Positions 2,500 to 17,460 of a DNA stretch of 64,000 nt are shown here, in pieces; position 1 is the first letter of the stretch; each line of letters starts with the position of its first letter. Source of the DNA: a virus. Taxonomy: Duplodnaviria > Caudoviricetes. The DNA lies in IMG/VR virus record IMGVR_UViG_3300011008_000010, positions 64,001-128,000 of that record, one strand, 5' to 3'. The notes beneath the pieces are model-generated. The model saw nothing but the letters and a program-made list of their open reading frames with translations, ran no database searches and had not been told where the DNA came from. A program made the translations under genes and the position numbers.

Positions 2500-5400
2500 A
2501 TGGCCAGTAATCAAGTAGAAAAAGTATTTAAATTCAGGGTTGATGTAGAGAATCCCTCGCAACAGTTTAAAAAGCTGTCACAAGAGGTTAAAAAACAAGT
2601 CGAACTATCAGCCACAGAAATAAAGATTCGCCCTGATGAAAATACAATTCCTGCTATCGCAAAAATACTTAGAGAAATTGAAGATAAGACAGGAATTACA
2701 ATTGACGTTGAAGCAAATTTGCAAAACGTTGAAAATCAGATTGCGAATTTAAAGAAACAGCTCAAAGATTTGAAATCTCCTTCTGAAATTGTTCCTAATA
2801 TGCGCAATATAGACAAGACGAATTATCTTAACGATCTTGCCAAAGACGCAAAGACGGCGAAGAAGGATGTTGAAGAACTTGGCAAAAAAGCGGAAGAAGC
2901 ATTTGCATCATTTGAGAGAAATAAAAATCGTAGAACTTATAGCGAATCATACAAAGAAGATTTGAAGAAGTTTCAGGAAGAATTTGTTCTTGAAACGAAA
3001 CTGTCTGATGTAAGAGATAAAGCTTTAGAGCAATTACAGGCTATTTCCAGTACGCCTGGTTGGGCTAACGAAGCTACAGAAGTGGCCAAGGTCATTGAAC
3101 TATTAAAGCAAGTTCAGTTGATTAACGAGAGAATCGTTGAACAACGGAAGAAAATGACTGAAGATCAGAAGCAGTTTTATAATGATAACGGTGTCACTAC
3201 AAATACAAAGATGCCTTCTGGTATAGATGCCAGTGCCGTATCTAAAAAGGTCGAACAAATTGCCAAAAGTTCCGATGGTCTTGTCGCATCTATTCAGGAG
3301 AATTTAAAGTCTCTACAAGCTGAAAAGAGAATGTTGGATGATCTTACAAAGTCCATGCAGGAATTTACAGCAGCGACAGATCAATCTGTTCAGACCGGTG
3401 GCAAAGGTGGTAGTGATACCGGGCTTGAGATATCTCCTACCGGATCAATTGATATCAGAGCGAATGCAAAGATTGAAATAACAGGACATGATGTAACGGT
3501 TATTCCGGAAAGTCCTGTTACTATTACCGGATCTAATGTCAGCATCGATATTGAAGCCGGTGCGTTCAATGGATTGAAAACTAAATCTTTGCAGAACGCA
3601 ATCGATATGATCAAGCAGATTGACGCTGCTATTAAGAACCATCAGACAATGACTCCTGAGATTAAAGAGGGGTCGTTAAAAATCGAGAGCGTAATACCTA
3701 AGAAGGTCAGCACGCTTACTATACCGGTTAAATTAGGTAAGTTGTCAGCAGAGAAGGTTAATAATTTTGTTGCAACTGCAAGTACAGAAGTTGCCGGTAT
3801 GGGAGCTGCCGTATTGATGAATACGGGGCTTAGAGATATAGCAAAAAAGGAAATTAATCGAGTAATTTCCGATACTAATAAAAAGGCAAAAACCGCTACA
3901 ACCAAGGTTAAGTTGGAAGCAGAACTTGTACTTGGCAAAGGAACGAGTGAAAAGGTTTCTGGAATTGAAGAAAAGGTCGGCTCTCTAACCGAGTCATTTG
4001 CTAATCTTCCAAGTACAATAACCGGTTCTGCCACAGAGAGTGTTCGTGCACTTGAAGAACTTAGAAAAATTATCGCCGATATTGACGAGAAGGTAAAAGA
4101 TATATCTAATGTCAAAATTACGCTTAGACATACCTCTCAGAAAGATGGCGGTAGTAGTAGTAGAAGTTCTTCTGGTAGTGGCACATCTTCTATTTCTGGC
4201 GGTCAGATGTCGAAGTTGTCTTCTTATGTAAAAGGAGTTTCAATTCCTAATACATCGGAACTTGATATAAAAGAATTAAGGCTTATATATCTTGAGCTCA
4301 TGAAGATATACGGACTTGCTGAAAAGATTCCGAAGGCAATGTTCGGCGAAGGCGAGAACTATATTAATTTTTCGAAAGAGCGTCTTGTTGCAGAAATAGA
4401 GGCTCTTCAACAGAGAGATGCTGTTCTAAAGGAAGAACAGAAAGTCGAAAAGGCGGTAAATGATTATCTCAAAAAGCAGATTTCGCTTCGTAACGAATTA
4501 GGAAAGAAGCAACAGGATCTTCGAGAGAAAATGGCCGAGATGTATAACGGCCTTTTCTATGGAGATGAGAATGCTAGAGACAGTCTAAACAATCTGCTTG
4601 AATCAATTGATCTCGATAAAATGATGTCGGATGGGAATCTTGACGTTGCCAAGAAAGTTCTTGGCGATGTTGCTTCTATTGTAAAGGAGATCCAGGATTC
4701 TAACAAAAAAGGTGCCACGGAAGCCAATAAAGCCCTCGAAGAAGCCGTCGAGAAAAGCAAACAGCAGCTTGAACTTGCCAAGCAGAGACGCGAACTCGAA
4801 GAAAAGATAACAAACATGAAGTCTGCGGTAGGATCTAATGACGATGAGTTCTATTCGAAGACCATAAACGAAATAGAGTCCGCGTTTAAGAAAATTGACG
4901 ATCACGGTCTTGCCGATAACATTGGCATCGAAAAGAGTAAACTTGATGAGATTAGTGAAGGATATAAGAATGTCACTAATATGATTAATTCTGCTTATGA
5001 CGCAGAGTTAAAAAGAGAAAAGGCGGCAGATGAGTCCTTTAAATTCCAACAGCAAATAATCAATCAACAAAATAATCTTCTAAAAGAAAAAGCAGAGCTT
5101 GAGCAGAAAATCCAGAAGATGTATGAGGATGGAATTGTTCGGGCAGAGAAGCTAAGAGACGTTGAAGAAGAACTTGCTAAGATTGATATTTCAAGCCCTT
5201 ATGATACTAATGGCAAAGCAAATCCTCTTGGCGGGGATGTTTTAAATAATTATGGGCAATCGCTTGACAACATAAGAAAGAATCTCGTAAATCTTGAAGC
5301 GCAAGAAAAGAAGGAGCTTGATGGCAGAAAGAAATTAGCCGGTTTCCTGCTAAACGAAAAAGAACTTCGTGAAAAGATTGCAGAGTTAAGAACTTATGGC

Positions 5401-6543
5401 AGTACGGATAAAGAACAGCTTGATAAGTTAGAGCAAGAGCTGAATACTTTTAATCTTGATAAGCTTGCAGAAAAAGCAGAGGCTCCTGCCAGAAAAGCAA
5501 TTGACGAGATTACTGTCGGACTTGGCAAGGTTAGAAAAGAACTTTTTGAAATTGAAAAAGCTACTATCAAACCGGCCAGTGCCTTAAAAGATCTTGGTAA
5601 GAAACTAAGAAGTTTTACCGGAACGCAAGAATGGCGCGACACATCTGATGCAAATATTGGCCTTAATTATATTGGATCAGAAGAGCAGCTTGCCAAAATA
5701 AGAGCTGCACGTCAGGAAATTGCACAGCTTGTTGAAACTGTCGGCAATATCAGCAAAGAATTCACCAAAGAAGAAGCCGAGAAGTTTACAAAGCAATATG
5801 AGAATGCAATCAGTAAGTTTGAAAATGCCGTAAGAAATGTTCAGAGAAAGACGGCTAAGAGCGGGAATGTTACTGTTCTTGGTACGGACACGTTGCATCA
5901 AGTTCAGGAAGTTGAAGATGCTATTAAACGCATTAATGAAATAGGTGCAAATGCTAATATTCAATGGACCACAAAAACAACCGGCGACATTACAAGGCTT
6001 ACCGGTGTTCTTACTGAAAATGATGGTACGGTAAAGACTCTTGTATATGATTACAATAATCTTACTACAGAGTTGTCTGAAGTAAGCGTCACAGAAAAGC
6101 AAACTGAAACATTTATGCAGCGCATAACAAAGTTGCTTCGCCAGAGAAGCGATGCTTTGATTGCGTACATTGGTACGTTCGCAAGTTTCTATCAAGTTAT
6201 GGGGAAACTTCGTGAAGGTGCTACTATTATCAAACAATTAGATACAAACATGACGGAGCTTCGTCGTGTTAGCGGTGCGACCAGAGGAGAATTGGAAGCT
6301 TTTAAGAGCACCGTTTTTGATATCGGTAGAGAAATTGGTTCTGCCGGAGATACAATTATAAAGCTTGCAGCAGATTATGCAAGACTTGGTTATTCATTAA
6401 GTGAAGCAAGCGAACTCGCTAAAGCATCTGCAATGTATATGAATGTAGGTTTTATTGATGATGCGACTTTTGCTATGGAAAGTTTAACATCGACGATGAA
6501 AGCTTACGGGATGCAAGCGAGTGAAGTTGCAGATATTGTTGAT
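2500..6543 (+). CDS. tape measure protein, exon 1 (1348 aa)
   Basis: Long helical ORF ending in the TP901-type TMP core (LDTNMTELRRV...ADYARLGYS...EVADIVD); core continues in later exons. Confidence 0.9.
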
Positions 6544-7053
6544 TAGAGTCGTTATCATATTGAAATAGATAACGATATATAGTTAGTCTATAGAGAAATC
6601 CGTAGATAGCGCGTTAAACGCCAACAAAGAAACTGAATTGCTGGGATACCGTAAAACTAATAGAACTACAACATAGGGATGAAACAAACTCAAGTGTGAA
6701 TGTGGCGAAAGCAGAAAAAATCTATTAGATGGCACATGGTTAAATCCTAAATGCTTCTACAAGAAATTGGTAATCAGCAGCCAAGCTCCGAACAGGAGAA
6801 GGTTCAACGACTATCCCTCGTGAGGGGAGTACACGCAAGCGCGTGGAAGTGGTTTCGCCTAAACGTATCGTAAGGTACGCATGGATAAGATATAGTCTGT
6901 GCCTTACTGAAAGGTAAGGAAGTTCATAAGAGAACTGCATGAGAAGTAGCGAGCTTATGTGAACGACGCCTCTAAAACGGCTAAAGTTGTGTGGTAATTA
7001 ACAAGTGGTTGTTACCGCTATGCATATGTAAAATTTTTAATATGTTTTTTTGC

Positions 7054-7083
7054 TTGACTTATTAGGGATAAATGCAGCATAAT
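7054..7083 (+). promoter_or_regulatory. sigma70-type promoter for tnpB inside intron 1
   Basis: TTGACT-N18-CATAAT, ending 46 nt upstream of the tnpB ATG. Confidence 0.5.
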
Positions 7084-7129
7084 ATTTATCGTGTAGTGGA
7101 TATATAATTTATTTATAGGTTTTGCGCAT

Positions 7130-8227
7130 ATGATTAAATCATATAGATTTAGACTTTATCCCAATAAAAGTCAAAGAGAACTTATGGCTCAAACATTTGG
7201 TAATTGCAGATTTGTCTATAATTATTATTTGGATAAAAGAATAAAATACTATGAAGAAACCAAAGAAACGTTTGGGTTTTATCAATGTTGCAAAGATTTA
7301 ACAGAATTAAAGAAGAAGTATGAATGGCTTCAAATATCCGATAAATGGGCTTTGCAAAACACATTGAAAGATTTGGACTTTGCGTTTAAAAATTTCTTTA
7401 GAAATAATGGTTATGGATATCCTCGGTTTAAATCAAAGAAAACACATAGATATTCTTATAAAACTACTTTTACAAATAATAATATAAAATGGTCGAAATC
7501 TGCAATTAGACTCCCAAAATTAGGTTGGGTTAAAGTAAGAGACAAACAAATACCACAAGGCAGAATTCTTAATGCTACGGTAAAACATGAACCATCTGGA
7601 AAATATTATTGTTGTATTTGTTGTACGGATGTTGAAATATCTCAACTTCCAAAAACGGGTTTAAACATTGGAATGGATTTAGGCCTTAAAGAATTTGCAG
7701 TTACCAATGACGGAACGAAGATAAATAATCCTAAGCACCTAGATAAGTCACTAAAGAAGCTTGTTAAATTGCAGCGAGAACTAGACCGAAAGACAAGGAA
7801 TAGCAATCGTTGGAATAAGCAAAGAATTAAAGTGGCTAGAATGTACGAGCGGATTACGAATCAAAGAAAAGATTTCTTGCAAAAATTATCCACGCAGATA
7901 ATATCAGACTATGACATTGTATGTCTTGAAAAATTAGACATACAAGAAATGATTGAACGTGCTGATTTTTCAAGAAGTATATTTGACGTATCATGGAACA
8001 TGTTTGTTCGAATGCTCGGATATAAAGCCGAATGGTACGGTAAAAAGGTGGTTAGGGTTGATAGATGGTACGCCAGTTCGCAAATTTGTTCGTGTTGTGG
8101 GCATGTTTACAAAAAGACAAAAAGTTTGTTAGTTCGGGAATGGACGTGTCTTAAATGTAAAACTCATCACGACAGAGATGTGAACGCTGCAAAAAACATA
8201 TTAAAAGAAGGGCTTCGAATAGCCTAA
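7130..8227 (+). CDS. tnpB: RNA-guided endonuclease TnpB (IS200/IS605 family)
   Basis: N-term YRFRLYP..FGNCRFVYN; RuvC GMDLG, CLEKL, DRDVNAA; CxxC..CxxC zinc ribbon; catalytic D/E/D intact. Confidence 0.95.
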   Translation: MIKSYRFRLYPNKSQRELMAQTFGNCRFVYNYYLDKRIKYYEETKETFGFYQCCKDLTELKKKYEWLQISDKWALQNTLKDLDFAFKNFFRNNGYGYPRFKSKKTHRYSYKTTFTNNNIKWSKSAIRLPKLGWVKVRDKQIPQGRILNATVKHEPSGKYYCCICCTDVEISQLPKTGLNIGMDLGLKEFAVTNDGTKINNPKHLDKSLKKLVKLQRELDRKTRNSNRWNKQRIKVARMYERITNQRKDFLQKLSTQIISDYDIVCLEKLDIQEMIERADFSRSIFDVSWNMFVRMLGYKAEWYGKKVVRVDRWYASSQICSCCGHVYKKTKSLLVREWTCLKCKTHHDRDVNAAKNILKEGLRIA

Positions 8228-8347
8228 TGTATGTATAGCGGTAGGAACTACCGTGTTAGCTCGTGGAGAAAGTAGGTAACGAAATCTGTGAAACGAGAAT
8301 CCGCAACTTTAGTTGTGTGAGGTTCAGAAGTTTAATGAAGTGGGTAA
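8228..8347 (+). ncRNA. TnpB omegaRNA 3' scaffold plus guide (guide about 8328-8347)
   Basis: GCGGTAGGAACTACCGT hairpin, CTCGT/ACGAG pairing, GAATCCGCAACTTTAGTTGTG end hairpin, then flanking guide; the 5' end probably overlaps tnpB. Confidence 0.75.
8328..8345 (+). CDS. tape measure protein, micro-exon 2 (KFNEVG)
   Basis: AAG TTT AAT GAA GTG GGT restores the conserved TMP motif DKFNEVGNNFAISS. Confidence 0.9.
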
Positions 8348-8656
8348 ATTGTTGCCCTTGAATGGCTATATCGGTCAAAGGGTGGGGACACCAGAGACCG
8401 AGCAAAGACTTAATATATTGCCGAAATGTGCTTAAAGAAAATGCGTTGAGGATAAACAATATGTTATGGATGCGTAACGACTGCGATATGGTATGTGGCA
8501 ACACATATTGTTAAGCCTATCCATGCGTAATAAGCTATCGCATGTAATATACAGTCTGAACTACCGCTATAATCCAAATAATTATGAAACGGTAGAGTAA
8601 GGCCGAAAGACCTTGCCGCCACAGAAATGTGGTCATAAAAGCAACAGTTAAATTTG
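8346..8656 (+). ncRNA. group I intron 2 (ORF-less, 311 nt)
   Basis: P1 GGGU/GCCC with U.G wobble; P10 AAATTGTT pairs with exon 3 AACAATTT; P7 GACTG 8479 / CAGTC 8552; terminal G. Confidence 0.85.
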
Positions 8657-8839
8657 AACAATTTTGCAATTAGCTCTGAAGGCATCGGTGAAGCCTTACA
8701 GAGATCTGCTGCTGCGCTTGCACAAGCAAACAATGATTTAGACAAGAGCATCGCTCTTGTTGTGGCTGCTAATGACGTTGTGCAGAATCCTGAAACAGTT
8801 GGTACTGCACTGCGCACGGTGGCTCTTCGCATAAGGGGT
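8657..8839 (+). CDS. tape measure protein, exon 3 (61 aa)
   Basis: NNFAISSEGIGEALQRSAAAL...QNPETVGTALRTVALRIRG, conserved TMP core; 183 nt in frame. Confidence 0.9.
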
Positions 8840-9165
8840 AACACATGTTATTTTATTTTGTGCCCATCCAGAGAGAAATCCTGGTCTGCGTTGCGAATAA
8901 TAAATTACGCAGCATGATCGCTATATCGGTCAAAGGGATAACGGTATCCAGAGACCGACGTAACCCATAGTGGGGTACGCTACAGACTGCCAGATCTATA
9001 TGGCAACATATAGGTTTAAGCGATCTCGCTCTCCTATTCTGGAAACGATGATATACAGTCGGAACTCACGCTATAACCGTAATTAATGAAACGTGAGAGA
9101 TAGCCAGAAATGACTATCCGCCCGCAAGGGTCAGTAGCTTTAATCCAGGCGAAAGTAACAGAGTG
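8840..9165 (+). ncRNA. group I intron 3 (ORF-less, 326 nt)
   Basis: Exon ends GGT, GCCC internal guide; shares GCTATATCGGTCAAAGGG, CCAGAGACCGA and GACTG/ATATACAGTC with intron 2; terminal G; splicing gives RIRG|AKADLEELGED. Confidence 0.85.
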
Positions 9166-12100
9166 GCAAAAGCGGATTTAGAAGAGTTAGGTGAAGACAC
9201 GGATGGATTAGCTAGCTCTGTATCGTCTTTAAGAGCAGAGGTTCTGGCACTTTCTGGTGTTGACATCATGATTGATGACAACACATTTAAAGATACTTAC
9301 AACATTCTAAAAGAACTTGCCTACGTATGGCATGATTTGACGGATGTTTCCCAAGCAGCTCTCTTAGAAAAGCTTGGTGGCAAACGTGGTGCTAACGTAA
9401 TCGCATCTATCCTTAGTAATGTAAACGATCTTGAGGCGGCTTATGCAGCCGCTGCTAATGCTGCCGGTTCTGCATCGGCAGAAAATTTAAAGTATCTAGA
9501 AAGTATCGAAGGTAAATTATCTCAACTCTCTGCTTCCTGGCAGGAGTTTTGGGATTCTTCATTTTTAAACAGCGTATTTAAAACCGGAATAAATTTATTA
9601 AATGGATTTGTTCAGATCTTAAATGATGCTGGCGGCATAGATTTTGCCATCACGCTCGCTGGCGTTGTTGGTTTGACACAGGCTATTAAACGGCTTGGTG
9701 GTTTTACCGGCAAGATAACAGAATTATATAACTCCTTTAAAGATTTCAGGGCGCTCATGAAAGATAATAATCTGAATTGGGCCGGTCTTTTTAAAGGGAG
9801 TTTCGTCAACGAGAAAGATATTAAAAAGAATGTAGAAAAAGTTGTTGGCAGTGCTTTCTCAACATACAATCAGGTATTTAATGCCGGTGGTGGTACTCAG
9901 GAAGCTGCTGCAAAAGCAAGTAGTGCGGCTTTAGCAGATCTCGTAAAAAATCAGGATCTATTGGCAAAATCATCCAGCGATTTAACTAAGTCTATGATTG
10001 AACGGGCTGCTCAAGAAGGTACGAACATAACGCTTGAACAGCAAGAAGCGAAGACAGTAGAAGTTCTGAACAATGAACTTGAGACTGGCGGAAAGAACAG
10101 TGCTCAATTTGCTAAAGGTCAAGCGGCAATGAAGAGTGCTATTGCTGCTATTGCTGTTATTGGCGTTTCTCTTGCCATTAATGCTATCAGCGCCTACATT
10201 CGAAAACAGGACGAATTAAGAGAGAAAATTATTGAGAACGGTAAAACGCAAGTAAAGCAAGCACGTAGTTTGCGTGATGCCGTTAATAGTTTTGATAAGA
10301 TCAATGCCGACTATAAGACCGGTGCGGCGACATCAGACGAATTAAGAAATGCTATTGAAGGCGTAAACGAAGCTCTCGGAGATCAAAAAGAATTATTAGC
10401 CGGTGTTTCGTCTGGCAGTGATACTTGGAGAAAGCGTCTCGATGAATTAATCGAGAAACAGAATGAGGTTGCTAAGAACGCGGCTCGTTCTGCGTTGTAC
10501 AATGCATCTAAGAAAAGTGCGACAGATACGGTCAAAGGTATTGGCTGGAGCATTGCCAAATACTGGACTTCTTCTTGGGGAGGTATGTTGCCGATTGGCA
10601 ACCTCCTTAAAGACGTAAATCCGATCTCTAAATTTTTTGGAAATAAGAAGGATCTTACCAATCGATCTTCTCAAATTAAGGCATTAAAGGAATGGCAGGA
10701 TGAGTTAAAAGAACTCGAAGAAGAATATAAAGAACTTGAAAAAGCCCAAGAAGAGGCTATGTCGGAAAATAATGGTGCTGCACTAAAGACCAATCCGATA
10801 AAGGTTCTTCTTGGTTGGCAAACGGATTATGCGAAAGAACTTGATAAGAATCAGAAGAAACAAGACGAGTTAATCAAGAATATTGCTCAATATAATGATT
10901 CTGTTCAAGAGACGGCTCAGGCAGCAGCATATCTTGTTTGGGAAGACAGTATTAAAGATATAGATAATGCGGCTGACAAATACAAAAAATTAGATAAAGC
11001 CGTAGAGGATGTAATTAGGACATTTGGACTTGCCGATGACGAAGAAGGCATCAAAGCCGCCAAAGAAATGATTCTGAGTTTCATGGAAATGGATTCGGAA
11101 TCTGCTGGGTTTATGGCTCTTAAAAAGGGAGCCGAGGATGCATCTAAAGCAATTGGTGCTGCAAGCGTTTCCGTAGAAGGACTGTTAGAAGCGTTTGATA
11201 AAGGAGATCTGACCGAACAAGACATTTTTGATCTTAGCGATGAAAGATTTAAGAATTATGTAGAGCAGAACCAACTTTATATTAAGAGTGTAGAGCAAGC
11301 TATCGAAACGCTTCATGCTTGGAAAGATGAAGTCAGAGCCGAGGCGAAAGAAACCAATACGCTTGTTGGTGTTATTAGGGACTCTAAAGATGCCATAGAT
11401 GATTTCCAGTCTGCTATATCGAAACTTGGTGCTATAATGAAAGCCGATTATTCGAATAACGCTTCTGGTATGATCGATGATCTGCAAGATCTAATCGACG
11501 TTATCAGTGGGATGGATACCAAAGTATCCGAGCAATTATTCGATAAGTTAAATAGTGCGTATAGCGTAGAAGCTCTTTCGTCTGCAATGAAGAAGGCCTC
11601 CGAAGAGGCAATGAAATTTAAATTAGATGGCTTAATTGATTCGTTAAATCTTGCAAATCCTGCATTGGAAAAGATGCTTCGTCTTCTTGTTGAACAGGAA
11701 AAACAAGTAGAAGCAATTACATCTGATTTAGATTCGTTTAAATCTGCTTATCAGAACCTTATTGGGGTGGTAAAAGAATACAATGAAAACGGATTTTTAA
11801 CGGCGGATAATATTAACACCATTCTGTCGATGAGTCCGGAGTATTTGGCTGCTCTTGATTATGAAGGTAATAAGCTAAAGTTAAATGAAGAAGCGTTAAA
11901 GAAAATTGTCCTTGTTCGATTGGAAGAAGCAAAGAGGCAAATTGAGTCTAATAGACATACTCAATTGTCTGCAATATATGCAGAACAAGAAGCGAGGGCA
12001 AAGCAAAAGTCTGCCGAATTAACATATGAACATGCGACAGCATTGTTACAAGAAGCAATTGCAGCAGGAAAATCTGAAACAGAAATACTGAAACTTGAGA

Positions 12101-15100
12101 AGCAAGTTTATAAACTGTATGAAGCACAACAAAAATTACAGGGTGTAGAGTTTTCGGGTACGCTAGATTCAGATTTGCAAGAGCAAGCAGATGCAGTAAA
12201 TGAAACTGCCGATGCTGCGATTGATAGTATTGATCATGTCATAGACGAGTTTGAAAACGGATCTATGGATGCGCTCAATACATTTCTCGGTGTTACAGAT
12301 GACATTGAAAAAGATGCCGAGGATGCCGCAGAAGAACTTAAATCTCAGATAGACTCCGTTCTTTCTAAGTGGAAATCTGCGCTGGATTCCGGTGCGATTA
12401 ACTATAAGCAATATCTGGACAAAATGAAGTCCATGCGCAATCAGTATGCAGATCAGTTAAATACCGAAGATTTGCTGCAAATGGATGTAGATATTGCCCA
12501 GGAAGAACAGAATATGTGGAAGGAGGCTATGGACGCTGCCGGTAGATATATTGACCGGGAGATGAAGAAGCCTATTGAAGATCGTATCACCGCATTAAAT
12601 TCTGAGAAAGATGCATTAGAAAGAAATAAGGATGCCATCAGTGATTACTATGATGGTATCATTGATGGTTTTGAGAAACAAAAGGAAGCTGTTGAAAATC
12701 AGATTGACGCTGTTGAGAAAGCGTATGAAGCTCAGATTAAGCCTCTTGAGAATCAGCAGAAGGCAATCAATAAGCAAATTAAGGCTATTGAAAAGCAGAA
12801 GCAAGTTATTGAGGATGAGATAAAGGTTCTTGAAAGATCTAAACGGCCTTATGAAAAACAACAAAAGGCTATTGATAAAGAAATTAAAGCGATTGAGCGT
12901 GAAATTTCTGTTATTGAAAAATCCAAGAAACCTTATGAGCAGAAACAAAAGGCATTAGAAAAGGAAATCAAGGCAATTGAAAAGCAGATTGATATCCTTG
13001 AACGCTCCAAGCGTCCTTATGAAGATCAACAGAAGGCGATAAACAAGGAAATCAAGGCGATTGAAAAAGAGATCAACGCTCTTGAAAAGACTAAAAAGCC
13101 TTATGAGAAGCAACAGAAGGCTATTGCAAAGCAAGTTAAGGCAATACAACGGCAGATCGATGCGCTTGAAGATACAAAACGTCCTTACGAAGATCAGCAA
13201 AAGGCAATTGACAAGCAAGTCAAGGCAATTAATAAACAGATTAAGGCTTTAGAGAAATCCAAAAAGCCTTATGAAGATCAGCAAAAGGCTATTGACAAGC
13301 AATCAAAGGCAATTCAGAAGCAGATAAATGCTTTGGAAAAGTCTAAAAAGCCCTACGAAGATCAACAGAAGGCGATAAGCAAAGAAATCAAGTCTATCGA
13401 AAAGCAGATTAAGGCGATACAGGATACTGAAAAGCCCTATAAAGAAGAACAAGAATCAATCGAGAAGTCTATTCGTGCGATTGAGCAGAAAATTAAAGCG
13501 TTTGAAAAACTGCAACAGCCATATAAAGAACAGCTTGATCTTGTTAATAAGGAAGTTGCCGCTCTTGAGAGAGAAATTGAACTTATGGAGCGGTCAAAAC
13601 GATCTTATGAACAACGACGTGATGCAGTTCAAAATGAAATTGATGCTCTGGAATATCAGATGTCTGTTATTGGCAGACAGGAAACTGCGTATAAGCGCGA
13701 ACAAGACGCTCTGAATAAAGACATTGAACTTCTTGAGCGCCAGGTTTCTATCCTTGAATATAGGAAGAAGCCTTATGAAATTGCACAAAGACAAATTGAA
13801 AGACAGATTGGTCTTTTGCAGCAAGAGCAGAAAGAACTTGAGAAATTAAAAGAGCCTTACGAAGAAGAGATTAAAGCCTTAGAGAAAGAGCTTGAGGCTA
13901 TGCAGGAAGCCAATGAAGAACGGCAAGCTGCACTTGATCTTCAACAGGCAGAATATAATCTCAGGAGAGCACAGCAGCAAAGAACCAATTATGTTTATCA
14001 GGATGGACAGTTCCAGTATATTGCAGATCAGACAGCTATTAAAGATGCTCAAAAGACGATAGATGATCTCAAATACGAGGAATCTGTAAAACGCGTTGAA
14101 AAGGCAATTGATAGGTTACAGGATAAGATTGACGAGATTACCGCTCAGAGCGATGCTATCCAAAAAGATATCGATGAACTGACAGATAAAAACGATCAAC
14201 TTGCCGAAAGCATTCAGCGCATACAGGATGAAATAGATCCTATTCAGGACGATATAGATGAGCTGACGTTTAAAGCAGAAGAATTACAGTGGTCTATAAA
14301 TGACATTGAGTATTCGATGACAAGTATCCAGTATGCCATCGAAGACTTAGAGGCTGCAAACGAAGATTTGGAAGAATCAATCCGACAGATTGACGAAGCT
14401 ATTCAGCCTTTACAGTATAGGCTTGATTCATTAAAAGATACTGCTTCTGACTTGCAATGGGAAATCGACAAGATACAGCAATACATCGATCCGTTAAATA
14501 CAGAGATCGAAGGGTTGAATGATACGATTTCTGAACTTCAGCTTATTATTGATGAAATCGAAGAATCAATTGATCCGCTTAATGAAAAGATCGACGAGCT
14601 GAATGAGCACAATGATTTATTACAGGAATCTATCGATGCTATAACAGACGCGATTGAACCGTTAAACGAACAAATTGACGAGTTAGCGGAACAGTCAGAT
14701 TTAATACAGGAAAAGATTGACGAAATTAATGATGCGATTGATCCTCTTAATGATCAGATTGATGATCTGAATGAACAAGGGGATGAATTGCAAGAAATGA
14801 TCGATTCTATCGGCGAATCTATTGATGAGCTAAGTCGTCAAATAGATGATCTGAATAGGCAGAGCGATTTTATACAGGATATTATCGATGAAATCGATGA
14901 GGCTATTGAGCCTCTCGAAGAACATTTAGACGAACTGAATGAAAAGAGCGAAGAGCTTCAAGAGCAAATAGATGCAATTGATGAAGCAATCGAACCTTTG
15001 CAGAGAACAATCGACGAGTTAAACGATCAGATTAGTGATTTGCAGGATGTTATCGATGCTATCGATGAATCTATGGAGCCGCTTCAGGAAAGAATCGAAG

Positions 15101-17460
15101 CACTTAATGAAGAGAGCGAAGAACTTCAGCAGACTATCGATGAAATCGATGAGGCCATTGAAGAACTGAACTATCAGCTCGAACCGTTAAACGACGAGAT
15201 TGATCTTCTTAACAGGCAGAACGATGAACTTAGCGAATCAATAGAAGAACTCAGAGAACAACAGGAGTTGGAAGTTGAAGCGTTACAGGCTCAGAGCGAC
15301 GCTATAAGCGAACAGATTGATTATTATCAGCAGTTAAAAGAACAGGCAGAAGAATCGATCCAGGCTCAGATAGATAAAATCGATGAACATATCGATGCGT
15401 TGGATAAGGAAATCGAAGGTATCGAAGCATATAAAGATCAGCTCACGAGCATCTTTGATGAAATTGATGCAAGAAAAGACGAAGATCTTCTTACTACGTT
15501 ATTCGGTGAAGGATGGCAAGAGAAACTACAATCATTAGATCCTCAGATTATAGCTGATTTTGCTGCTGGATATGAAGATTCTACGGAAAGATTAAAGGAA
15601 GCGAATCAGGTAGTCATTGATTCGTTAGAAGGACCAGATGGTCTTGGACAGGCAGCGGAAGAAACCGAACAAGACGTGTCTGAATTAAAAGATACGATGG
15701 CCAATGCCGATGAAGCAATAGGCGAAGGATCGATTAAGGATGCTATGGATCAGACTGCTGTATCTGCTGAAGATATGGCAGAAAGTTTTGTTAAAGTTAG
15801 AGACAACATTGACGAAGTAATTGATGCTATTGGAAGGCTTTGGGAACAGCGTGGGACTTTTAATGAAATTGGAGGCATGATAGATGTCTACCTGATTCAA
15901 AAGTTCCATGAAACCAAAGAAGCTATTGATCCTACTTTAATTGATACAATTGGTTTGCTGTGGGATGCCGTTCGTGTCAACAGCGTGATGATTGGCGATG
16001 CCATCGAGAATAACATATTAGGTGCTCTAAAGGATATTGAGGAATTCTTGAATAAGAATATTCCCGAAGCATCTGATTATGCAAAACAAGAGGTGATCAA
16101 AGATATTGAAGAGATCGTCTCTTTTATGACTGATCGTGCGCAGCCTGGTTTATTAACTGCAATCGATACGATCAAAGAAGAGGCAATCAACGCTTCCGAT
16201 GAAATTGTTCGTGAAGTTGAAGACGATATAGATCAGATCGTTAGTTATGCGGAAGATCCTGGTAAAGCACAGCTTGTTGCTACGGCAGAGCAGACAAGGA
16301 TTGATATTTCTGAGATTTCAGATGATCTTGTGGATGATATCGAAGATGATGTTAGAGAAATCTGTGAGGTTATTGTTCCTAATGGTCTTAGAGAATGCGA
16401 AAAAGAGATACAAGATTCCGTTGATAATGTAATTATTCCTAAATTAAGGGATATAAAAGACGAGATCGACGAAATTGTTAGTGCTGCTTTAGAAGCAATG
16501 CAAACTGTTTCTGAAATGGGTATGACAATTGCCAATGCAATTAATGAGGTTGCACAAAATATTAGCAATGTTATTAGTGGTATTGAGGAATCAATTAATA
16601 ATACCTATGAAAATCTCACAAAAGAAGGCGGTCTAATACAAAAGCTACATGAGGCGGCAGAAGCTGCTGCTCAGATCCCTGGATATGGTGTTGCTCAACC
16701 AGATCAAACTCAGGATGATGGCGGTGGCGGTGATCAGAATAACAATTATGATAATAACAACGGTGGTGGTGACAATAATTATGATGTTCAGTCTGCCGAA
16801 GTTCAAACAGATCAGTTTGTTGTTCAGAATGCCAATATTGAAATGACAACATCTGAAGGTAAGCGAGATGGATATCAAACTTACCGGATGGGCGAAAAGA
16901 GCATTTCTTATCAAAGATATAAGACCGAGGCTGGAAAAGAAGAAATTGAAAAATGGAGAGCGCAAGGTTACGACATCAGAGTAACATCTGGAGTTGGTGG
17001 TCGAACACTCTTCACTGTTGATCGCTATGGCAAAGGTGGGTATGTTGCAACTGAAAAGTTAAAGACGCCACTTACCAATTTGGCCAATGCTGTTGGCGAA
17101 GATAAGATGGTCGCCGTACAAGAAGGCGAACGCATCCTTACTCCTACTCAAAATAGGGATTTTGAAGAATTTGTCAGATTAACACCTGAGTTAATTAGTG
17201 CAACTGAAAGTCTTGCAAAATATGCAAAATTATTCGAAGACATTTCCACTATGGATTCGATGGCGTCAGAAGCAGGCATGATGCGTGGTGTCAATGGTGT
17301 TGTGGACAGAGCAAATGCTGCTCCTGTTACGAATAATACTATGTCGCTTAATATCGGTGATATCCATGTGCATGAAGCTAAGAATGCTGACGACCTTGCA
17401 AGACAGATTAAGAACAATTTGCCTAACTCTTTGATTCAGGCGTTAGGTAGAGCAAGTTAA
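9166..17460 (+). CDS. tape measure protein, exon 4 (2764 aa)
   Basis: Continues the TMP core (KDTYNILKELA..LLEKLGGKRGANV), hydrophobic segments, coiled-coil repeats, C-terminal VQEGERILTP motif. Confidence 0.9.
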   Translation, partial: AKADLEELGEDTDGLASSVSSLRAEVLALSGVDIMIDDNTFKDTYNILKELAYVWHDLTDVSQAALLEKLGGKRGANVIASILSNVNDLEAAYAAAANAAGSASAENLKYLESIEGKLSQLSASWQEFWDSSFLNSVFKTGINLLNGFVQILNDAGGIDFAITLAGVVGLTQAIKRLGGFTGKITELYNSFKDFRALMKDNNLNWAGLFKGSFVNEKDIKKNVEKVVGSAFSTYNQVFNAGGGTQEAAAKASSAALADLVKNQDLLAKSSSDLTKSMIERAAQEGTNITLEQQEAKTVEVLNNELETGGKNSAQFAKGQAAMKSAIAAIAVIGVSLAINAISAYIRKQDELREKIIENGKTQVKQARSLRDAVNSFDKINADYKTGAATSDELRNAIEGVNEALGDQKELLAGVSSGSDTWRKRLDELIEKQNEVAKNAARSALYNASKKSATDTVKGIGWSIAKYWTSSWGGMLPIGNLLKDVNPISKFFGNKKDLTNRSSQIKALKEWQDELKELEEEYKELEKAQEEAMSENNGAALKTNPIKVLLGWQTDYAKELDKNQKKQDELIKNIAQYNDSVQETAQAAAYLVWEDSIKDIDNAADKYKKLDKAVEDVIRTFGLADDEEGIKAAKEMILSFMEMDSESAGFMALKKGAEDASKAIGAASVSVEGLLEAFDKGDLTEQDIFDLSDERFKNYVEQNQLYIKSVEQAIETLHAWKDEVRAEAKETNTLVGVIRDSKDAIDDFQSAISKLGAIMKADYSNNASGMIDDLQDLIDVISGMDTKVSEQLFDKLNSAYSVEALSSAMKKASEEAMKFKLDGLIDSLNLANPALEKMLRLLVEQEKQVEAITSDLDSFKSAYQNLIGVVKEYNENGFLTADNINTILSMSPEYLAALDYEGNKLKLNEEALKKIVLVRLEEAKRQIESNRHTQLSAIYAEQEARAKQKSAELTYEHATALLQEAIAAGKSETEILKLEKQVYKLYEAQQKLQGVEFSGTLDSDLQEQADAVNETADAAIDSIDHVIDEFENGSMDALNTFLGVTDDIEKDAEDAAEELKSQIDSVLSKWKSALDSGAINYKQYLDKMKSMRNQYADQLNTEDLLQMDVDIAQEEQNMWKEAMDAAGRYIDREMKKPIEDRITALNSEKDALERNKDAISDYYDGIIDGFEKQKEAVENQIDAVEKAYEAQIKPLENQQKAINKQIKAIEKQKQVIEDEIKVLERSKRPYEKQQKAIDKEIKAIEREISVIEKSKKPYEQKQKALEKEIKAIEKQIDILERSKRPYEDQQKAINKEIKAIEKEINALEKTKKPYEKQQKAIAKQVKAIQRQIDALEDTKRPYEDQQKAIDKQVKAINKQIKALEKSKKPYEDQQKAIDKQSKAIQKQINALEKSKKPYEDQQKAISKEIKSIEKQIKAIQDTEKPYKEEQESIEKSIRAIEQKIKAFEKLQQPYKEQLDLVNKEVAALEREIELMERSKRSYEQRRDAVQNEIDALEYQMSVIGRQETAYKREQDALNKDIELLERQVSILEYRKKPYEIAQRQIERQIGLLQQEQKELEKLKEPYEEEIKALEKELEAMQEANEERQAALDLQQAEYNLRRAQQQRTNYVYQDGQFQYIADQTAIKDAQKTIDDLKYEESVKRVEKAIDRLQDKIDEITAQSDAIQKDIDELTDKNDQLAESIQRIQDEIDPIQDDIDELTFKAEELQWSINDIEYSMTSIQYAIEDLEAANEDLEESIRQIDEAIQPLQYRLDSLKDTASDLQWEIDKIQQYIDPLNTEIEGLNDTISELQLIIDEIEESIDPLNEKIDELNEHNDLLQESIDAITDAIEPLNEQIDELAEQSDLIQEKIDEINDAIDPLNDQIDDLNEQGDELQEMIDSIGESIDELSRQIDDLNRQSDFIQDIIDEIDEAIEPLEEHLDELNEKSEELQEQIDAIDEAIEPLQRTIDELNDQISDLQDVIDAIDESMEPLQERIEALNEESEELQQTIDEIDEAIEELNYQLEPLNDEIDLLNRQNDELSESIEELREQQELEVEALQAQSDAISEQIDYYQQLKEQAEESIQAQIDKIDEHIDALDKEIEGIEAYKDQLTSIFDEIDARKDEDLLTTLFGEGWQEKLQSLDPQIIADFAAGYEDSTERLKEANQVVIDSLEGPDGLGQAAEETEQDVSELKDTMANADEAIGEGSIKDAMDQTAVSAEDMAESFVKVRDNIDEVIDAIGRLWEQRGTFNEIGGMIDVYLIQKFHETKEAIDPTLIDTIGLLWDAVRVNSVMIGDAIENNILGALKDIEEFLNKNIPEASDYAKQEVIKDIEEIVSFMTDRAQPGLLTAIDTIKEEAINASDEIVREVEDDIDQIVSYAEDPGKAQLVATAEQTRIDISEISDDLVDDIEDDVREICEVIVPNGLRECEKEIQDSVDNVIIPKLRDIKDEIDEIVSAALEAMQTVSEMGMTIANAINEVAQNISNVISGIEESINNTYENLTKEGGLIQKLHEAAEAAAQIPGYGVAQPDQTQDDGGGGDQNNNYDNNNGGGDNNYDVQSAEVQTDQFVVQNANIEMTTSEGKRDGYQTYRMGEKSISYQRYKTEAGKEEIEKWRAQGYDIRVTSGVGGRTLFTVDRYGKGGYVATEKLKTPLTNLANAVGEDKMVAVQEGERILTPTQNRDFEEFVRLTPELISATESLAKYAKLFEDISTMDSMASEAGMMRGVNGVVDRANAAPVTNNTMSLNIGDIHVHEAKNADDLARQIKNNLPNSLIQALGRAS
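12739..13900 (+). repeat. basic 28-aa (84-nt) coiled-coil repeats, about 14 units
   Basis: K(K/R)PYExQQKAIxKxIKAIEKxIxxLEKS periodicity. Confidence 0.85.
14150..15240 (+). repeat. acidic 28-aa coiled-coil repeats, about 13 units
   Basis: (D/E)PLNxxIDELNxxxxxLQExIDxIDEAI periodicity. Confidence 0.85.

Follow-up and report, generated by a model that had tools for sequence, protein, structure and literature searches.

How does a phage tape measure gene that is broken into separate reading frames give rise to a single protein? The question is raised by the window analysed here, a 64,000-nt stretch of DNA that corresponds to positions 64001-128000 of an IMG/VR virus record of 137.8 kb. The record is a metagenome assembly (contig depth ~4-5x, CheckV completeness of the genome 77%) and represents an uncultured, SPbeta-like gut phage, the host of which is probably a gut Firmicute. 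A plain listing of open reading frames (ORFs) returns three broken frames on the + strand (2500-6546, 8654-8917 and 9163-17460), as an earlier note on this DNA had said of gene callers. We consider it very probable that these pieces belong to one tape measure pre-mRNA, spliced by three group I-type ribozymes. Relatives of the gene are denoted by L-numbers (DNA loci) and P-numbers (homologous proteins).

Exon organization of the tape measure gene

The gene is composed of four exons, which are separated by three introns.

2500..6543, + strand: tape measure exon 1, 1,348 amino acids (aa), ending in GTTGAT (V-D); from the ORF listing
8328..8345, + strand: micro-exon, 18 nt, encoding KFNEVG
8657..8839, + strand: exon 3, 183 nt, 61 aa, matching PF10145 profile positions 87-145
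9166..17460, + strand: exon 4, 2,764 aa plus stop, largely coiled coil

Once joined, exons 2500-6543, 8328-8345, 8657-8839 and 9166-17460 form an open frame of 12,540 nt, which is divisible by 3, contains the terminal stop only and codes for 4,179 aa. The junction peptides, in which slashes denote the joins, are DIVD/KFNEVG/NNFAISS and RIRG/AKADLEELGED. Both peptides and a product of about this length had been proposed in the earlier note and are exactly reproduced, as is its description of a U before and a G at the end of every intron: T precedes the introns at 6543, 8345 and 8839, and G closes them at 8327, 8656 and 9165. All three introns are 2 mod 3 in length and contain in-frame stops; therefore, read-through cannot yield the protein.

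The three insertion sites lie within 18 + 183 = 201 coding nt, inside the conserved PF10145 core, where the earlier note had placed them. The C-terminus of exon 1 matches positions 7-80 of the PF10145 profile and exon 3 matches positions 87-145, with scores of 22.7 and 24.3 bits, each below the Pfam cut-off of 33.2. The gap of six positions between the two matches equals the six residues of the micro-exon.

Homologous proteins delimit the exons in the same way. The end of exon 1, used as a query, retrieved 26 relatives. No intron separates exon 1 from the micro-exon in P0002-P0007 or in uninterrupted homologs, and in the latter exon 4 likewise follows directly on exon 3. Alignment to intron-less homologs, a check that the earlier note had set, showed contiguity over all junctions to the residue: the spliced junction region aligns without gaps to uninterrupted homologs of 1,900-2,200 aa (E about 1e-85 to 1e-94), and P0018, P0014, P0009, P0013 and P0022 align over all three junctions. 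Across the junctions, the uninterrupted homologs read IVDKFNEIGNNFAISS, and P0022 reads MRLRGAKAELDKIGEDTEG. The region is also contiguous in ~60 of 80 IMG/VR loci encoding a relative of exon 3. Because the PF10145 gap is exactly six residues and the homologs align gaplessly, the joins are not due to chance, and the exon boundaries are fixed to the residue. Inteins, programmed frameshifting and separate polypeptides were also considered, and were ruled out by the in-frame stops, the 2 mod 3 intron lengths, covariation at the RNA level and the contiguous homologs.

The gene can be identified as a phage tape measure gene on the basis of the PF10145 core, the identity to the protein of phage Sundance and the SPbeta-type tail genes found upstream in relatives. 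The annotated tape measure protein of Brevibacillus phage Sundance (2,528 aa) shares 62% identity with exon 3, full-length homologs carry PF10145 (PhageMin_Tail), and SPbeta-type tail genes (YomU-like tube, YomW) are located directly upstream in relatives. The length of 4,179 aa is well above that of the Sundance protein and of the 1,900-2,200-aa homologs, while the closest relatives are similarly large. If the usual 0.15 nm per residue applies along its full length, the protein would correspond to a tail of about 0.6 micrometres. A Pfam scan of the giant protein found no enzymatic domains, only coiled-coil noise.

An IStron in the first position

The earlier note had described three plain group I introns. 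The boundaries and the type of the introns stand, but intron 1 is not a plain intron, as it features the organization of an IStron carrying tnpB.

6544..8327, + strand: intron 1, IS605-type (group A) IStron, 1,784 nt; tnpB without tnpA, non-autonomous
6550..6574, + strand: left-end subterminal hairpin CGTTATC / GATAACG, read from the sequence
6569..6919, + strand: group I ribozyme core, Rfam RF00028, model positions 1-253 of 253
6581..6587, + strand: candidate internal guide sequence AGTTAGT, predicted to form P1 with UUGAU of the exon and with the first two intron bases (+1 and +2)
6961-6966, + strand: GAACGA motif, preceding the inverted repeat
6981..6989, + strand: 5' arm of a 9-bp inverted repeat, pairing with 8304-8312 and enclosing the ORF region
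7130..8227, + strand: tnpB, 365 aa; Pfam PF12323, PF01385 and PF07282, all above cut-offs
8233..8327, + strand: right end, three consecutive omegaRNA-scaffold-like stem-loops, then the terminal G of the intron

The ribozyme core matches RF00028 over its whole length with 65.9 bits (gathering score 50, E 1.7e-14), and shares 70-79% identity with introns found in Twort-like Staphylococcus phages and in phages of Bacillus, Listeria and Clostridium. The element is inserted directly 3' of TTGAT, ends in GGTTCAG and is not flanked by a target duplication, and its splice sites coincide with the transposon ends. Published group A IStrons, such as CdISt1, share the TTGAT target, the TCAG end and a 5' IA2-type ribozyme, and have the IS part downstream of P9.2, after GAACGA and inside a short inverted-repeat stem (Tourasse 2014, PMC4227781). 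Since ribozyme, tnpB, TTGAT/TCAG ends, GAACGA and inverted repeat match these hallmarks, intron 1 can be assigned to the group A (IS200/IS605-type) IStrons. IStrons of the tnpB-only, non-autonomous kind are known, and many published CdISt1 copies are devoid of tnpA (PMC4227781).

Comparison with relatives defines the insertion to the base. L004, L005 and L053 feature an identical empty site, TTGAT^AAGTTTAATGAAGTGGGT, in which TTGAT is followed by the same 18 nt; therefore, the insertion of the IStron was base-exact and proceeded without target duplication. The element opens with a stop codon in the frame of the exon (TAG), and the genome carries one copy only. A homologous IStron with the same ends interrupts another gene in L087 (Clostridioides phage ES-S-0173-01), and its removal restores an open frame. 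A second one, again tnpB-only and 76% identical over 1,769 nt, is present in the orthologous tape measure gene of L089 (L089:2406-4210) and of L090. The L089 tape measure protein is 77% identical to that of the window, and its IStron is located near residue 3,365, after another TTGAT; removal again restores the open frame. At the equivalent spot (about 15013-15015), the window has the uninterrupted sequence ATCGAC. The use of a different TTGAT in L089 indicates that the element moves as a transposon, to TTGAT sites and not by classical homing, and that the tape measure gene of this lineage was struck at least twice.

The candidate internal guide of the predicted P1 is kept in the three IStrons; in L087, GTTAG is replaced by GTCAG, which leaves the pairing with UUGAU possible. 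L087 and L089 also have a hairpin, of other sequence, at the matching place of the left end. A promoter-like site (TTGACT, 18 nt, CATAAT; 10/12 matches) is found inside the intron at 7054-7083, ~50 nt upstream of tnpB. Over the region as a whole, promoter-like sites are no more abundant than in shuffles, and no terminator-like sites were found inside the introns.

Introns 2 and 3

The two downstream introns are short, lack ORFs and are related to each other. Helix positions are those of the covariation alignment, A1.

8346..8656, + strand: intron 2, 311 nt, ORF-less group I
8342-8345/8354-8357, 8361-8367/8514-8520 and 8371-8376/8396-8401, + strand: intron 2 helices P1, P3 and P4
8479-8483/8552-8556 and 8561-8566/8590-8595, + strand: intron 2 helices P7 and P9
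8840..9165, + strand: intron 3, 326 nt, ORF-less group I, same family as intron 2; P2 and P2.1 hairpins
8836-8839/8862-8865 and 8916-8922/9019-9025, + strand: intron 3 helices P1 and P3
8985-8989/9056-9060 and 9065-9070/9092-9097, + strand: intron 3 helices P7 and P9

Conserved blocks are common to both introns and to inserts found at the same sites in relatives, homologs being present at the same two sites in L003-L006, L009, L053 and L067. An nhmmer profile of the family detects two copies only in the genome, which are introns 2 and 3. Among GenBank phages, the only match is a partial one of 73% to intron 3 in two Thomasclavelia phages. Matches to the snoZ178, mir-2996 and group II D1-D4 models (Rfam, E<=10, 6300-9400) were rejected as chance-level.

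Alignment A1 includes eleven ORF-less family members, related to one another in sequence, in 461 columns. Run unaided on this alignment, RNAalifold recovered P4, P5, P7, P7.1, part of P8, P9, P9.1 and P9.2. P1 and P3 were added to the fold by inspection, and P7 was entered as a pseudoknot. P6 and P8 are present but too variable to be scored in common columns. In the full fold, 96.5% of the cells pair, versus 28-39% in controls with slid partner columns; 34 of the 52 pairs are changed on both sides, and none of 500 shuffles reaches any of the observed measures. For instance, all seven pairs of P3 are formed in seven sequences, among which the helix has six different sequences. P1 is GGGU/GCCC in both window introns and covaries with the exon in relatives as AGGU/GCCU or CGGU/GCCG. 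Introns 2 and 3 display the core helix order P3-P4-P5-P6-P7-P3'-P8-P7'-P9 with the P3/P7 pseudoknot. They also share a conserved 3' end, ...AGUAACAGnnnG, and 10 of the 11 family members terminate in AACAGnnnG. On this model, the assignment of introns 2 and 3 to group I is supported.

The homolog of intron 2 in L003 (L003:9418-9724) ends in ...AACAGCGCA, with A instead of the terminal G, and may be an inactive copy, use a shifted splice site or contain a sequencing error. Compared with its homologs in L004 and L006, intron 3 has ~14 extra nt in the P1 loop region (window 8842-8861).

In relatives, introns 2 and 3 in some cases carry nuclease-like ORFs of about 300-480 aa in the P6 region, so the ORF-less window copies are presumably immobile descendants of a mobile family. 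ORFs of the intron 2 homologs in L004 (7321-8289) and L009 (2415-3350) match DUF2726 just above the Pfam cut-off, and the intron ORFs of L066, L085, L008 and L054 match no Pfam family. These intron ORFs are candidate homing endonucleases of poorly described types.

Interrupted tape measure genes in relatives

Among 84 related tape measure loci, about 22 carry an interruption in the core region that is split here. Insertions occur at six or more sites, located after residues 176, about 226-230, 237, 301, 309 and 313 of the junction query. Three introns are found in the core of L053 (L053:3132-4701), and L009, L067, L077 and L003 also feature multiple introns (two or three). Of 17 related loci searched with RF00028 at its gathering score, only two gave matches, the L089 IStron and an L076 intron, and family members in 16 related loci were missed.

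TnpB and the predicted guide

The TnpB protein aligns with ISDra2 TnpB (8bf8/8ex9) over residues 3-362 (E 1.2e-94), and retains both the RuvC D-E-D residues (D183, E267, D350) and the zinc-finger cysteines. By these features it is intact and apparently active. The TnpB family is very large: in a protein search, the best non-self match is 72% identical and Clostridioides difficile TnpBs are ~57% identical, and a scan of 185,579 representative genomes returned no close relative.

The consensus fold of the right end in the window, L087 and L089 comprises 28 pairs, of which 6 show compensatory changes. Three-stem-loop right ends of this type have been described in IStrons (bioRxiv 2023.11.20.567912), and the fold suggests that the stem-loops at 8233..8327 belong to an omegaRNA.

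In the TnpB family, the guide comes from the sequence that follows the right end. The predicted guide would therefore be the first 16-18 nt after the right end, which is the micro-exon. Vacant sites in which the target-adjacent motif (TAM) is followed by 18 identical nt are present in relatives L004, L005 and L053. The predicted guide would match such vacant alleles and would spare the occupied allele, in which the TAM is 1.8 kb away. That TnpB serves as an RNA-guided weapon between phages, with the micro-exon as its guide and the essential tape measure gene of a rival with a vacant site as its target at co-infection, is a rather doubtful proposal. If true, cleavage would copy the IStron into the rival or exclude the rival allele, an effect like that of T4 homing endonucleases that would here be programmed by RNA. 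It is also possible that cleavage at the 5' splice site of intron 2, which is 18 nt past the right end, trims the guide RNA to length; if so, trimming would couple one ribozyme to the nuclease of another element.

Proposed mechanism and alternative explanations

We propose that the tape measure pre-mRNA is part of a late transcript and that three group I-type ribozymes are embedded in it, in a 201-nt stretch of the PF10145 core. The IStron would have arrived by transposition 3' of TTGAT, and would later have lost tnpA and kept tnpB. Each ribozyme would excise itself via two transesterifications, in which exogenous guanosine attacks after the U of the P1 U.G pair and the exons are ligated after the terminal G, giving one 4,179-aa frame. 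The micro-exon would have three roles: 3' exon for the IStron, P1 strand (GGGT) for intron 2 and predicted guide/target for TnpB. The sequences establish the continuity of the exons, the boundaries of the elements, the empty sites, the conserved RNA folds and the integrity of TnpB; splicing in vivo, TnpB activity and use of the guide are inferred. A virion uses only a few copies of the tape measure protein. This low demand could make weak splicing tolerable, and hence several, possibly inefficient, splicing events.

Several observations weigh against this model. The omegaRNA and the 3' splice site of IStrons have been reported to compete (bioRxiv 2023.11.20.567912), and the splicing of intron 1 may consequently be inefficient. 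The low depth (~4-5x) and the completeness of 77% leave the viability of this phage in doubt. The group I identity of introns 2 and 3 derives from a structural model and 11 related sequences. A check against group I covariance models, suggested in the earlier note, was successful for intron 1 (65.9 bits), whereas introns 2 and 3 gave no match to RF00028 between 6300 and 9400 even at E<=10.

These points lend themselves to other readings. The IStron could be a recent, damaging insertion whose ribozyme, through decay or through competition with the omegaRNA fold, splices weakly if at all; translation would then stop at the opening TAG and the genome would be defective or handicapped. The closest relatives do lack an IStron at the site, the genome holds a single copy without tnpA that begins with an in-frame stop codon, and the published antagonism between omegaRNA and 3' splice site fits the same picture. 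Yet the ribozyme matches the whole Rfam model with 65.9 bits; the ends, the P1 candidate, the inverted-repeat stem and the 3' stem-loops are kept in two other frame-restoring IStrons; and, as few tape measure copies are used per virion, weak splicing could suffice. We regard a damaging insertion as improbable. It seems quite improbable, too, that introns 2 and 3 are degenerate remnants dependent on a protein cofactor or on another intron in trans, rather than autonomous ribozymes of group I, or that they belong to another RNA class. Such a reading would account for the missing Rfam match, the small P4-P6 domain, the lack of ORFs and the A that ends the intron 2 copy of L003, but not for the compensatory changes in 34 of 52 pairs, which place the helices under selection. 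In addition, phages that share only 37-73% protein identity have retained both introns at the same sites, which would hardly be expected if the introns were not removed from the mRNA. As RF00028 covers only part of group I diversity, its failure weakens automatic annotation rather than the structural assignment.

An assembly artefact or a chimera of the metagenome contig would be compatible with the low depth of about 4-5x, and with loose ends at 6772 and 6816-6817 that reflect other introns with the same core in the sample. Logan contigs of run X1, which were assembled separately and maybe come from the same sample as the assembly of the window, are nonetheless identical to it over the junctions: they span the 5' junction of intron 1, run from its 3' junction through the micro-exon into the beginning of intron 2, and cover intron 3 entirely. 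Introns 2 and 3 moreover occupy the same sites in relatives from other samples, and the ends of the IStron are base-exact when compared with empty sites, which makes an artefact extremely improbable. The joined, IStron-free form was not seen in 3 DNA runs of one sample, a depth of 4-5x being uninformative on polymorphism. Contigs of the same gut sample (run X1) match the ribozyme core and then diverge at window positions 6772 and 6816-6817. Such divergence past a shared core points to further group I introns in that gut community that have this conserved core.

Relation to known systems

The presence of three introns in one virion gene is less exceptional than the earlier note implied, considering the precedents in Bacillus cereus prophages and phage Twort and the ~22 interrupted loci among 84 relatives. 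The group I introns TMP-IVS1, -IVS2 and -IVS3 were described in 2008 from the tape measure genes of prophages of the B. cereus group (Tourasse and Kolsto, PMC2504315). These introns, which are of the IA type, resemble those described here in that they occupy several sites in a gene family of Firmicutes siphophages, related introns are found at different sites with an adapted P1, and many lack a complete homing endonuclease gene. In contrast to the three introns found here, one of them an IStron, that study describes at most two introns per gene and no IStron.

In the orf142 gene (tail tube) of Staphylococcus phage Twort, an internal exon of 23 nt accompanies three group I introns (Landthaler and Shub 1999, as summarized in PMC10136302 and PMC11878797). 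Both genes are tail structural genes with three introns, two of them closely related, and a very short internal exon. In Twort, the short exon separates the two similar introns and exon skipping has been demonstrated; here, the 18-nt exon lies between the IStron and an unrelated intron. The two internal exons of the window (18 and 183 nt) are both multiples of three, and introns 2 and 3 share an identical 5' exon end (GGGU) and an identical guide (GCCC). Exon skipping of the orf142 type would thus keep the frame, giving products that lack 6 or 61 residues.

The coincidence of splice sites and transposon ends is shared with published group A IStrons (PMC4227781; Zedaveinyte et al., bioRxiv 2023.11.20.567912). 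The phage IStrons listed in the 2014 survey, from C. botulinum phages c-st and D-1873, belong to group B, the IS607 type (PMC4227781). The element described here is of the IS605 type, and stands apart from published group A IStrons by its location in a phage virion gene, 18 nt from the next intron. ISDra2 has the same TAM, TTGAT, and the same catalytic residues as the TnpB of the window, but is not linked to an intron.

Each component has a published precedent. What is new is that a TnpB-bearing IStron of the IS605 type occurs together with two classical introns inside 201 coding nt, that the 18-nt exon is set between unlike ribozymes, that the standard model misses the intron family, and that the protein is of this size.

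The conserved tape measure core of SPbeta-like gut phages is a hot spot for introns: a stretch of ~140 codons includes at least six sites, and a single gene can hold as many as three introns. As gene callers split the gene and Rfam sees one of its three introns, gut phage catalogues probably list fewer intron-split tape measure genes than exist. The two IStron hits at different TTGAT sites provide a natural setting for TnpB-driven retention or homing in a virus, and the 18-nt exon with its predicted triple role is a compact system in which to study exon skipping and how adjacent ribozymes interfere with each other.

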